From NCBI GenBank assembly GCA_965215265.1, contig OZ244048.1, positions 2,880,001-2,944,000 on the forward strand: DNA of 64,000 bases, given 5' to 3'. Positions 29,668-33,652 of this stretch are shown piece by piece. Origin of the DNA: Candidatus Poribacteria bacterium. GTDB lineage: Bacteria; Poribacteria; WGA-4E; WGA-3G. Both the position numbers and the translations under genes were made by a program. A model generated the notes under the pieces. The model searched no databases, was not told where the DNA came from, and saw nothing but the letters and a program-made list of their open reading frames with translations. How positions within the stretch are numbered: position 1 is the first letter of the stretch; each line of letters opens with the position of its first letter.

Positions 29668-29696
29668 TTGACAAATTAGGTCAGATTTGCTAAAAT
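29668..29696 (+). promoter_or_regulatory. Sigma-70 promoter of the HMA selenoprotein genes
   Basis: TTGACA-17-TAAAAT with extended TG. Confidence 0.65.
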
Positions 29697-29769
29697 AATT
29701 GATAAACGACTTGTGATAGTTAGTTTTTTCTGTAGGTCGTTTAACAAATAACTCAAGGAGGTCAACCCG

Positions 29770-30201
29770 ATGTATATTGCGAAATTATCGCTGATCTGCC
29801 TCATCGCTTTTGCATTCATGGTAGGCTGTGGGATGATGGGCAAAAAGGCAGAAATGCCAGAAGCCGCCACAGGTTCCATGGAAGGTGAAATGATGAAATC
29901 CGAGGCCGCGGAAGCCAAGACAGAGTCCTCTGTTATGGAAGAGGAAACGCCAGAAGCCACGGAAGCTATAGCAGAGGCCGCCATTGAAGAGGTGACGTTA
30001 AACGTCACAGGCATGACGTGAGGAGCATGTACCAGTAAGGTGCAGGCTGCACTCTCTCAGATTGCCGGTGTTTCTGAAGTGGTGAGTGTTTCTTCTGATA
30101 CCAACACTGCAGTAGTGAAGGTAGAAAAAGGCAAAGTGGCGAACAACACTCTAACGGAGGCGGTTAAAGACGCGGGCTTCAGTGCCGAAGTTGCCAAATA
30201 A
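29770..30201 (+). CDS. HMA (CopZ/MerP-like) domain lipoprotein, probable selenoprotein (GMT-U-GA-C)
   Basis: AAGGAGG RBS, lipobox MVGC and a Met/Glu-rich linker. In-frame TGA at 30019 is followed by GACTSKVQAALSQIAGV..AVKDAGFSA to TAA 30199. Confidence 0.88.
30019..30059 (+). promoter_or_regulatory. Putative SECIS element
   Basis: Upper stem GTGCA-GGC-TGCAC with the loop 23 nt after UGA. Lower pairing TGAGGAG / CTCTCTCA. Confidence 0.7.
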
Positions 30202-30208
30202 ACGTTTG

Positions 30209-30245
30209 TATGGAGGGACGGGCATCGCTCGCCCTCCATTTTTTA
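30209..30245 (+). terminator. Intrinsic terminator
   Basis: ATGGAGGG..CCCTCCAT followed by a T-tract. Confidence 0.7.
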
Positions 30246-30263
30246 TAGAGGAGATATTCTGAA

Positions 30264-30617
30264 ATGCGAGTACAACAACGCAGTACGCTATTTATCTGTT
30301 TGATCGCACTGCTCTTGGCTATCGGCTGTGCCGATCAGCAAAAGACAACAAGCGAGAAAACGGAAACTATCTCACCGTCCACAGCAGAGGCCGCCATTGA
30401 AGAAGTGACACTAAACGTCACAGGTATGACGTGAGGAGCTTGTACCAGTAAGGTGCAGGCTGCACTCTCTCAGGTTAGTGGTGTTACTGAAGTAGTGAGC
30501 GTTTCCGATGCGGAAAACAAGGCGGTAGTGAAGATAGAAAAAGGCAAAGTAACGAACGCCGATTTGACGGCGGCAGTTGAAGGTGCCGGAAATTTTAGTG
30601 CGAAAGTTTCCGAATAA
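30264..30617 (+). CDS. Second HMA domain lipoprotein, probable selenoprotein (absent from the ORF track)
   Basis: GAGGAG RBS; MRVQQ..LAIGC..EEVTLNVTGMT-U(30432)-GACTSKVQAALSQVSGV..AVEGAGNFSAKVSE*. Confidence 0.88.
30432..30472 (+). promoter_or_regulatory. Putative SECIS element (copy 2)
   Basis: Identical to copy 1 except one synonymous base. Confidence 0.7.
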
Positions 30618-30625
30618 ACGTTTGG

Positions 30626-30658
30626 TGGAAGGGCGGGCGTGGCTCGCCCTCTATTTTT
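30626..30658 (+). terminator. Intrinsic terminator
   Basis: AGGGCGGGC..GCTCGCCCT followed by a T-rich tail. Confidence 0.6.
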
Positions 30659-30999
30659 CCGATTGCCTATTGGGTATATTCTAAAATGCGTCAACTTACT
30701 TGTAAAATCTAGTAACTTTTATAAATTATTTTCAGATACATCTACAGAACCTGCTCACAAATTGGTGCATCTCTTTTTTAATATTCTCCTTTTTGTGTAG
30801 TCGGAATTAACTCATCTCAATCCAACCTGTTGGTAATCTAATATTTTCCAATTCCTCTCCCTATTTTGACTTGGGGCAGAATGTGCCATTGCTTATTTTT
30901 TATATCTCATTAGATTTTGAATCAACGGTGGAATGTGTTGAACGGATGAAAACAGTGTTCCCGCCAAAAAAGTCGCATGCTTTTGAAATGTAAATCGAG

Positions 31000-31482
31000 A
31001 TGTTCCAACTCAGAAACTTGTTCATTGTCTTCTTGGCACTGATGCCTATTATTGGATGTTCGTCCGGAAAATCGGGGTTTGACGTAGCGTTGTCGGTTAC
31101 TGGAATGACTCGCGTAACCTCTATTTGGAATGTCATGAAAGCCTTAAAGAGCGTGGAGGCGTTGGAAATCAACGGTAATTTCTATCAGATAACCGGAGTT
31201 AATTTTCCTCTCCGTGATATGCACTATCAGGTAAAAAATAGCAGAGATGCGGATGAACCCCTGCGGATCCTGGTTATAAAAAATAAAATCGGTTGGCGTT
31301 TGCAACCTGATGAACCGAAGTACTTTTTCATTGTGGTGACAACTGAAGCTGAAGGTGTTCCCAAAGTCGCCGTCACGCAAGTGCTCATAAAACGTATCAC
31401 AAACGGGCTTGTGCCAGCCGTTGAACGCCTCGGTTTTCAAGGAAAGGTGGAAAGTGTCAAACCGTTTGATAGGATTTTTTAA
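31000..31482 (+). CDS. Cys-less expanded HMA-like lipoprotein
   Basis: Lipobox IIGC; VALSVTGMTRVTS..VMKALKSV..AVERLGFQGKV. Confidence 0.7.
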   Translation: MFQLRNLFIVFLALMPIIGCSSGKSGFDVALSVTGMTRVTSIWNVMKALKSVEALEINGNFYQITGVNFPLRDMHYQVKNSRDADEPLRILVIKNKIGWRLQPDEPKYFFIVVTTEAEGVPKVAVTQVLIKRITNGLVPAVERLGFQGKVESVKPFDRIF

Positions 31483-32998: not shown

Positions 32999-33652
32999 AT
33001 GTTTAAACGAAACTGGCTTTGGGCACTTGCTTTACTCCTTCTCATCGGCATCGGAAGCTTTGTGCTTTTAAAATCTAAAGCACCGCTGAAACCGATAAAA
33101 GTCTATAAGATGATAAAACCAGAACCGGAACCGGGTCCAACAAAGACAAGCACAAGCGACACAGAAATCACCACACCACATAGCCATGAACCCAACGATA
33201 ACCACCGCCATGGGCATTCCCATGAGAAGGTGTCGCCCTCCCACGTCGTGGAACCTGTCTCCAACGATGGTGAGTATGATTGGCGAAATGATGGCGTGTT
33301 TGATGTATCCGAACAGCAAGAAGAGGCCTGGAAACCAACGGATCCAGAACGTGAATTGCCTGACGCTGCTGAGGATACCTACCCACCTCGAGACTGGCAC
33401 AAAACAGAAGATATCGAGTTGCGCGCCGAGTATTTTTACGCCCAACTCCTCAAGCAATTTGGAGACATTCCAGAAGTTCATACTGTTGGCGAATACAATT
33501 TAAACGTTGCAAAAGGTGTGCCGCAAACGCTTCGTCAAATGGAAGACTACCTTGAAGCAAACTATCATCTCTTTCGGAATGATAAAAATAAAAAAGCCCT
33601 CGAAGAATTCTATAAGCTAAAAGCATTAGGTGCAACAATGGGGGCGAAATAA
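32999..33652 (+). CDS. Membrane-anchored His-rich protein with QLLKQFGDIPEVH domain
   Basis: N-terminal TM helix, HSHEPNDNHRHGHSH, and a motif shared with the neighbouring gene. Confidence 0.78.
   Translation: MFKRNWLWALALLLLIGIGSFVLLKSKAPLKPIKVYKMIKPEPEPGPTKTSTSDTEITTPHSHEPNDNHRHGHSHEKVSPSHVVEPVSNDGEYDWRNDGVFDVSEQQEEAWKPTDPERELPDAAEDTYPPRDWHKTEDIELRAEYFYAQLLKQFGDIPEVHTVGEYNLNVAKGVPQTLRQMEDYLEANYHLFRNDKNKKALEEFYKLKALGATMGAK

Follow-up and report, generated by a model that had tools for sequence, protein, structure and literature searches.

A tandem pair of unannotated Poribacteria genes predicted to encode lipid-anchored HMA proteins with selenocysteine in the metal-binding motif

The stretch of DNA analyzed here, referred to as the window, comprises 64,000 nucleotides of a Candidatus Poribacteria bacterium (assembly GCA_965215265.1, contig OZ244048.1, positions 2,880,001 to 2,944,000 of the forward strand). 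It contains two genes arranged head-to-tail on the + strand, both with an ATG start (copy 1 at 29770, copy 2 at 30264) and both with a TGA in frame. Each TGA falls at the first Cys of GMT-C-GA-C, the GMxCxxC metal motif of HMA domains, and in each gene it is very probably read as selenocysteine (Sec). The initial annotation of this DNA had assigned to each gene a ribosome-binding site (RBS), a lipobox, an in-frame TGA at the first HMA Cys, a full HMA domain and a terminator of its own, and all of these are present in the sequence. It had also named TGC or TGT in the reads as evidence against its view; the contigs of four public runs, from four studies, keep both TGAs, with no alternative letter at either position. 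The features of the pair, in coordinates of the window, are the following.

29668..29696, + strand: sigma-70-like promoter upstream of copy 1, TTGACA, 17 nt spacer, TG-TAAAAT (11/12 consensus matches)
29755..29761, + strand: RBS of copy 1, AAGGAGG (sequence)
29770..30201, + strand: copy 1, type A gene, for a predicted 143-aa selenoprotein precursor with U84-x-x-C87 (sequence, profile match)
29770..29829, + strand: signal peptide of copy 1, with the lipobox MVGC (Cys20) at its end (lipobox pattern)
29830..29985, + strand: Met/Glu-rich linker of copy 1, about 50 residues (composition)
30019..30021, + strand: in-frame TGA of copy 1, read as Sec84 (alignment to relatives)
30039..30053 (core 30040-30052), + strand: candidate selenocysteine insertion sequence (SECIS) of copy 1, G-GUGCA-GGC-UGCAC-U (cross-species conservation)
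30199-30201, + strand: stop of copy 1 (sequence)
30210..30245, + strand: intrinsic terminator of copy 1, stem-loop and U run (folding)
30248..30253, + strand: RBS of copy 2, GAGGAG (sequence)
30264..30617, + strand: copy 2, type B gene, for a predicted 117-aa selenoprotein precursor with U57-x-x-C60 (sequence, profile match)
30264..30329, + strand: signal peptide of copy 2, with the lipobox AIGC (Cys22) at its end (lipobox pattern)
30432..30434, + strand: in-frame TGA of copy 2, read as Sec57 (alignment to relatives)
30452..30466 (core 30453-30465), + strand: SECIS candidate of copy 2, G-GUGCA-GGC-UGCAC-U (cross-species conservation)
30615-30617, + strand: stop of copy 2 (sequence)
30624..30660, + strand: intrinsic terminator of copy 2, stem-loop and U run (folding and hairpin scan)

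The linker of copy 2, which follows its signal peptide, is short, Met-free and rich in Thr, Glu and Lys. The terminator hairpin of copy 1 (30210-30239) has a folding energy of –21.2 kcal/mol, which none of 200 shuffled sequences reached; that of copy 2 (folded stem at about 30624-30655, perfect stem at 30630-30650) has –20.4 kcal/mol, reached by 3 of 200. The sigma-70-like promoter of copy 1 is identified solely by its match to the consensus, and such sites are no commoner in the region than in shuffled sequence.

When the TGA is read through, both products match the Pfam family HMA, PF00403 (41.2 bits for copy 1 and 36.7 bits for copy 2, cut-off 24.8), covering positions 1-61 and 1-60, respectively, of the 62 in the profile. 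An AlphaFold2 model of copy 2, made with a 32-sequence alignment, is a β-α-β-β-α-β domain with pLDDT of 92-97 (strands at residues 45-53, 74-81, 86-92 and 112-115; helices at 60-69 and 98-108). Sec57 is placed in the loop that follows strand 1 and Cys60 where helix 1 begins, and the signal peptide and linker are of low confidence. A Foldseek search with this model gave 39 matches in the PDB at E ≤ 0.001, and those listed to that level are HMA domains or HMA-containing proteins. The nearest is MerP (1osd, TM score 0.93, 39% identity; a second MerP structure, 1afi, has 40% identity), and the other top neighbors are a plant Cu-ATPase domain, CopZ and domains of ATP7A/B; a sequence search of solved structures led to the same families. 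Among the NCBIfam models, the top score is that of the CopZ family NF047957 (56.5 and 52.4 bits for copies 1 and 2), with MerP (TIGR02052) at 50.5 and 45.9 bits against a cut-off of 92.55, and UxxU_metal_bind (NF041115) at 49.7 and 52.1 bits against an equivalog cut-off of 95. The CopZ-family models NF047957, NF033795 and NF033794 reach at most 56.5 bits with cut-offs of 85-95, and the MerT/CopZ fusion-like selenoprotein model NF045683 gives 40.1 and 29.9 bits against 375, aligning through its HMA part alone. Since all of these named families lie below their cut-offs, the genes are filed here as HMA domain selenoproteins and under none of those families.

Both products are most likely lipid-anchored lipoproteins, as judged from their N-terminal sequences. 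The lipobox pattern, a PROSITE-type PS51257 form ([LVI..][ASTVI..][GAS]-C), matches both copies and is found in frame upstream of 104 of the 125 related HMA domains collected from other Poribacteria (see below). All related single-domain genes have it, and the 21 domains that do not belong to multi-domain arrays, whose starts, where seen, have ordinary signal peptides. The genome contains lspA (117.3 bits, cut-off 73.95).

The two copies represent two paralog types. Type A, that of copy 1, has the N-terminus M-x-I-A-K/R and a linker with 13.8% Met (n = 50); the Met-rich linker pointed out for copy 1 in the initial annotation is thus a conserved trait of the type. In type B, that of copy 2, Met makes up 0.2% of the linker (n = 51). 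Most of the relatives examined have both types (about 50 genes each in 63 loci), with A upstream of B wherever the order was checked, and two HMA domains within one genome have a median identity of 69%.

A search of 176 genomes across the phylum found the family in nearly every member of the order to which the window belongs. Matches were present in 157 of its 158 genomes, distributed over its four families (f1, 110/111; f2, 11/11; f3, 29/29; f4, 7/7), usually two or three to a genome, and in few genomes outside the order. A search of 61 genomes of the order gave matches in every one (61/61), and nearly all the matches listed carry exactly one TGA. After de-duplication, 125 HMA domains from 63 loci could be compared: the codon is TGA in 115 and TGC or TGT in 10, the latter being the Cys-containing homologs that would be expected beside Sec-containing ones. 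Coding conservation extends to both sides of the TGA, and the whole GMT-x-x-x-C metal loop is kept as in metallochaperones. These counts describe breadth and not independent events, as the genomes are related and some loci are possibly from the same species twice.

Several relatives depart from the two-gene arrangement. One f4-family genome has Cys in place of Sec in both of its tandem genes, one of which retains the hairpin motif described below. Six loci encode secreted proteins in which 4-5 HMA domains follow one another behind an ordinary signal peptide that lacks a lipobox; an in-frame UGA and hairpin are present in each of the first two or three domains, and the one to three domains at the end have Cys and lack the hairpin. 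More than one Sec codon per open reading frame (ORF) is uncommon in bacteria.

The initial annotation had predicted that standard gene calling would truncate or miss these genes, and the content of the public protein databases fits this. Of 30 matches, the 24 examined are fragments, forms with W at the Sec position (translation table 4), Cys-type HMA proteins and one 'hypothetical protein', with no Sec-annotated form among them. The 'hypothetical protein', an NCBI entry from a Poribacteria metagenome-assembled genome, matches type B except that exactly the ten residues TGMT-U-GACTS are missing, which is either a real deletion or an artifact of a gene model avoiding the TGA.

The machinery for Sec insertion is complete. 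In the genome, a single contig of 4.83 Mb, all four of the genes that the initial annotation had proposed to look for were found: selA (589 bits) and selD (TIGR00476, 360 bits), both above their curated cut-offs, selB (336 bits, cut-off 242) and, directly after selB, the gene for tRNA-Sec (80 bits, anticodon UCA). The selD gene has an in-frame TGA of its own, in CAG-U-ASK. Of 48 tRNAs, tRNA-Sec alone has a UCA anticodon, tRNA-Trp having CCA, and TGA terminates 421 of the 1,956 ATG-initiated ORFs of at least 300 codons (22%). Since TGA ends many long ORFs and its sole cognate anticodon belongs to tRNA-Sec, TGA is an ordinary stop codon here and has not been reassigned. Together, the Sec machinery, the pairing of TGA with Cys among relatives and the conserved hairpin uphold the earlier reading of both UGAs as Sec codons.

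The hairpin lies shortly 3' of the UGA, where the initial annotation had noticed a stem-loop with a G-led loop. Numbering nucleotides from the U of UGA, GUGCA-GNN-UGCAC forms 5-6 bp, starting 18 nt after the UGA with its loop from nt 27, inside codons for Val-Gln-x-Ala-Leu. Across relatives, 112 of the 115 Sec forms have GTGCAG-NNN-GCAC at nt 22-34. The remaining three are compatible with the same stem: GUACA/UGUAC, in which G24:C32 has become A:U, a G.U intermediate of this change, and GUGCG/CGCAC, in which A26:U30 has become G:C and Gln is thereby turned into Arg. In an alignment of 107 sequences the five core pairs are paired in 100-107 rows and a sixth, closing pair (G.U or A-U) in 105; none of 500 shuffles reached the observed pairing or covariation, and shifting the partner by 1-3 columns lowered the pairing from 79% to 21-51%. 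For each of the alignment widths tried, RNAalifold selected the hairpin at nt 21-35, adding a weak outer helix of 4 pairs below it.

Codon choice follows the hairpin. Val+7 is GTG in 114/115, Gln+8 CAG in 114/114, Asp+9 GAT in 77/77, Ala+10 GCA in 113/113, and Leu+11 invariably CTN; elsewhere in these genes, Val and Ala columns have codon entropies of 0.9-1.9 bits. Only one of the ten Cys forms keeps the motif, and those without it read GTG-GAA-GCC-GCC, GTT-CAG, GTG-AAG or GTG-CAA-GAC-ACA, so that the constraint disappears together with the UGA. Across the genome, a hairpin of this kind stands at this distance after 185 of 167,861 TGA trinucleotides (0.11%); a relaxed form of the motif has 35 matches on both strands, and the three with a TGA 21 nt upstream are copies 1 and 2 and a third Sec-HMA gene. 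We regard the cross-species data on pairing, codon use and loss in Cys forms as the decisive support for nt 22-34 as a SECIS candidate. By folding energy alone a SECIS would not stand out here, as the z-scores of 57-81 nt stretches after the UGA are unremarkable (+0.27 to –1.37).

The near-identity of the two copies behind the UGA had been offered earlier as a sign of a SECIS. The observation itself stands, with a single synonymous difference (GCA vs GCT) in the 39 nt after the TGA, but its use as evidence does not. The copies nearly match over about 50 nt upstream of the TGA as well, and in a relative of the same genus the two copies do not differ at all over the 120 nt compared around the UGA (–30 to +90) and have HMA domains that are nearly identical in protein, so that identity within a genome is by itself no evidence for a SECIS. 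In other genomes the paralogs are 33-90% identical. This pattern suggests recent gene conversion, or homogenization of paralogs, in this genus.

Further selenoprotein genes of the genome have hairpins of the same shape after their UGA.

Contig 570245-570772: UGSC-family gene (NF041046, 151 bits vs 125), UCGUGCA-GUA-UGCACGA, apex identical to that of the HMA genes, 9-bp stem, loop at nt 23
Formate dehydrogenase alpha, FdhA, with SRA-U-H (TIGR01591, 746 bits vs 666): GUUGCC-GGGCU-GGCAGC, loop at nt 22
ResA-like protein with W-U-GC (below the NCBIfam cut-off): CUGCCA-GGC-UGGCAG, loop at nt 25
Prx/redoxin-like lipoprotein with W-U-PFC (below the NCBIfam cut-off): GCAACUC-GGU-GAGUUGC, loop at nt 25
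selD (TIGR00476, 360 bits): GGCUC-CGGGU-GAGCU, loop at nt 20

The third Sec-HMA gene (contig 3278917-3280509) encodes a secreted protein of 530 aa with a planctomycete-type cytochrome c domain (PSCyt1), a WD40 propeller and, at its C-terminus, an HMA domain with GMT-U-GAC, and has a GUGCA-GGA-UGCAC hairpin at the same distance from the UGA. Among the matches listed for f1 relatives, most genomes include one with a single TGA in an open frame of about 540 aa, comparable to this cytochrome c-WD40-Sec-HMA gene. An 840-aa open frame at contig 1710399-1712924 has a single TGA, in 'DDESC-U-GTG', and behind it a 7-bp hairpin capped by a GGUC tetraloop. A C-terminal AhpC/TSA-redoxin domain is its sole family match, with none around the U, and on its sequence features it is a candidate for a further selenoprotein.

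Two other ORFs of the window lie downstream of the pair. That at 31000-31482 (+ strand), just downstream, encodes a lipoprotein of 160 aa with the lipobox IIGC and the N-terminus VALSVTGMTRVTS, which echoes the strand and loop of an HMA domain with Arg (CGC) and Ser where the ligands would be. Its interpretation as a degenerate HMA paralog, on the strength of 'SVTGMTRVTS', was unsupported: it has no Pfam match, and NF041115 gives E = 0.06. The ORF at 32999-33652 (+ strand) encodes 217 aa with a hydrophobic N-terminal segment and a His-rich stretch, HSHEPNDNHRHGHSHEK, belongs to no Pfam family, and may bind metal.

The pair are almost certainly real, conserved and unannotated selenoprotein genes, and with high probability both are intact and encode lipid-anchored Sec-HMA proteins of the cell envelope. 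In the mechanism that we propose, SelB with Sec-tRNA(Sec) would be recruited by the GUGCA-GNN-UGCAC hairpin to read each UGA as Sec. The products would be exported through the Sec pathway of protein secretion and anchored in the envelope by a lipid on the lipobox Cys, each presenting one HMA domain with Sec-x-x-Cys instead of Cys-x-x-Cys as its metal site. Most likely, they would bind a soft, thiophilic metal ion with high affinity in the periplasm, or pass it on there. Stretches rich in Met are a typical feature of periplasmic Cu(I)/Ag(I) proteins. Because type A has a Met-rich linker and no mer system was found, Cu(I) is the metal that we favor, at about even odds. The genome has a single P1B-type ATPase, with no TGA, and a cytoplasmic CopZ-like gene of the Cys type.

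Several observations weigh against this interpretation. No conserved metal-gene neighbor was seen in the 20 kb around the pair or in about 14 kb in each of 7 relatives covering all four families, where the only recurrent neighbor is a gene for a GIY-YIG nuclease; one relative has a cation-efflux gene about 1.5 kb from the HMA gene, and in one f3-family relative a gene for an 821-aa multiheme cytochrome lies directly beside it. Thus, of the earlier proposal that these are exported Sec-containing metal scavengers or chaperones, the Sec part holds, and the scavenger or chaperone role is at present a suggestion. The closest solved structure is that of MerP, a mercury protein; every NCBIfam metallochaperone model scores below its cut-off for both copies; and the lgt-like match (96.1 bits, positions 10-266 of 280) is below the cut-off of 118.9. 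Kinship among the genomes means that the counts overstate independent support. The hairpin is short, with about –4.9 kcal/mol on its own, and nearly all of its pairs are invariant, the covariation coming from three sequences of related lineages. An alternative hairpin that shares its 5' arm has a core of –5.1 kcal/mol on average and is more stable in about half of the sequences. The loop at nt 27 is 2-7 nt further from the UGA than in the other selenoprotein genes of the genome.

The same genes might encode MerP-like periplasmic traps for Hg(II), or for Hg, Cd and Ag in general, with Sec giving very tight binding of Hg and copper not the main ligand. We consider this unlikely, though worth serious attention. 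The structural neighbors and TIGR02052 scores given above speak for it, as does the listing of a selenoprotein 'Mercuric transport protein MerP' for marine metagenomes in a table of PMC2398784. Against this, MerA is not found above its cut-off in the genome (378 vs 454 bits), neither the pair in the window nor the family in 7 relatives has mer genes next to it, and the MerP score is not only below its cut-off but slightly below that of the CopZ model. In addition, the measured composition of the type A linker points to Cu(I)/Ag(I). It is harder still to see U-x-x-C as a redox-active selenylsulfide, serving thiol-disulfide exchange or the sensing of peroxide or other oxidants in the envelope, and not as a metal site; we think this improbable. 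The fold is HMA and not that of thioredoxin, the complete metal loop has been retained, and in the multi-domain relatives the final domains have kept the usual CxxC motif of HMA, even though the other exported selenoproteins of the genome are thioredoxin-fold proteins, oxidized MerP with a disulfide is itself a solved structure (by the title of 1osd), and most known bacterial selenoproteins are, by the tables of two reviews, redox proteins with UxxC or CxxU (PMC9312934, PMC13188914).

That the UGA is not a Sec codon at all, but a true stop that leaves pseudogenes or two small products, or a codon translated as Trp, Cys or Gly, is very improbable. Public gene callers do stop at the TGA, or give W under table 4; on the other side stand TGA at one codon in 115 domains flanked by coding conservation, the ten domains with Cys codons aligned to it, the downstream structured element under synonymous constraint, the complete Sec machinery with tRNA-Sec as the only UCA-anticodon tRNA, the use of TGA to end 22% of long ORFs, and the copy 2 model, by which half an HMA domain would not fold. 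A narrower alternative accepts Sec insertion and assigns the SECIS function to a different hairpin (nt 10-15 with nt 21-26, G at nt 17 in the loop), or to a switch between two hairpins. In both copies two mutually exclusive hairpins can form after the UGA, and the minimum-free-energy fold of each copy is this other one, which in copy 2 reaches 9-10 bp. Its core columns (13-17 with 25-29) are paired in 99-107 of 107 sequences (92-100%), and the codons beneath it are narrowed (Cys+3 TGT 107/115, Thr+4 ACC 85/94). However, GUGCA-GGC-UGCAC alone is conserved across relatives. As a conserved element the longer form of the other hairpin (nt 7-15 with 21-29) was rejected, since its pairing is no better than that of shuffles (97/500 reach the observed value) and its outer pairs, open in 32-78 of 107 sequences, do not form in most relatives. 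The sequence of its loop is variable, RNAalifold never selected it, it leaves the invariant GCA-C 3' arm and the compensatory changes unexplained, and its loop, from nt 15-16, would lie nearer to the UGA than in the other selenoprotein genes checked in the genome. We therefore give little credence to it as the functional SECIS.

Beyond the lipid-anchored Sec-HMA proteins proposed here, a more far-reaching and rather doubtful scheme can be drawn as one joint claim. In it, type A, type B and the cytochrome c-WD40-Sec-HMA protein, with secreted chains of two or three Sec-HMA domains in some species, would form a dedicated selenium-based metal relay of the periplasm; Sec would replace Cys because, under the oxic conditions of the periplasm, a CxxC site would become locked into a disulfide; through the cytochrome, the passing on of metal would be coupled to electron transfer, e.g. 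Cu(II)/Cu(I) or Hg(II)/Hg(0); and the unusually small triloop SECIS would define a distinct mode of recognition by SelB.

Sec as a metal ligand in an exported domain of the chaperone type has so far, as far as we found, been a matter of prediction only. Sponges accumulate metals. As the family is present in nearly every genome of this order of sponge symbionts, selenium is apparently a standing part of metal handling in their envelope. Since gene callers split these genes, drop them or, with the wrong table, read the codon as Trp, annotations of Poribacteria and protein catalogs miss them. The tiny, near-invariant hairpin, with its compensatory variants and Cys reversions, also offers a compact test case for what a non-model SelB needs of a SECIS.

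Sec in HMA-like families had been noted in the initial annotation as already reported, and the published tables agree: 'Putative mercuric transport protein' and 'Mercuric transport protein MerP' are tabulated as predicted selenoproteins (PMC9312934, PMC13188914, PMC2398784). The main text of the 2026 review PMC13188914 contains none of the terms PF00403, HMA, MerT, metallochaperone or sponge. By their titles and the openings of their abstracts, the papers found on Poribacteria and selenocysteine do not treat these genes, and one of them mentions Poribacteria a single time in its text, for hydrogenases.

Among known systems, the closest in kind is the metal-binding (seleno)protein family UxxU_metal_bind, NF041115, likewise a small stand-alone HMA-type domain with Sec in the metal loop, whose full 74-position model aligns with the pair. 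It has two Sec (UxxU), whereas the Poribacteria pair has UxxC plus a lipoprotein signal peptide and linker, and scores far below the cut-off. We take the UxxC motif that appears in lists of predicted selenoproteins to lie in the HMA-type metal-binding domain of a copper or heavy-metal protein. The pair shares this motif with entries in the tables of PMC9312934, PMC13188914 and PMC2398784, in which the motif alone is given. The listed pump proteins have it in cytoplasmic N-terminal domains of a membrane pump, in contrast to the free-standing exported lipoproteins proposed here. CopZ/Atx1-type chaperones and Cu-ATPase domains (NF047957, NF033795; 6ff2, 3dxs, 7si3) have the same fold and GMTCxxC loop, but the CopZ/Atx1-type proteins are cytoplasmic and contain only Cys, unlike the pair, with its predicted export, lipid anchor and Sec.

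MerP is a soluble periplasmic CxxC protein encoded in mer operons. Like the pair, it is an exported single HMA domain (TIGR02052; 1osd, 1afi), and it is the best structural match of copy 2; the pair differs in its predicted lipid anchor and Sec, in having no mer context and in its below-cut-off score.

The hairpin may be likened to the SECIS of Escherichia coli fdhF, which also lies directly 3' of the UGA in the coding region, with an apex near UGCA-GGUC-UGCA and a G-led loop. The bacterial SECIS (bSECIS) model asks for a stem-loop close behind the UGA whose apical loop begins with G. Compared with fdhF, the HMA hairpin has a triloop (GGA, GGC, GGG or GUC), 5-6 bp and no bulged U, and its loop starts at nt 27 and not at about nt 22-23. 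Sec in an HMA/MerP-like metal site is of a kind already known from computation, and what the Poribacteria genes add is the lipoprotein pair, the small hairpin with its natural compensatory variants, and the Sec-to-Cys reversions in which the hairpin is lost.

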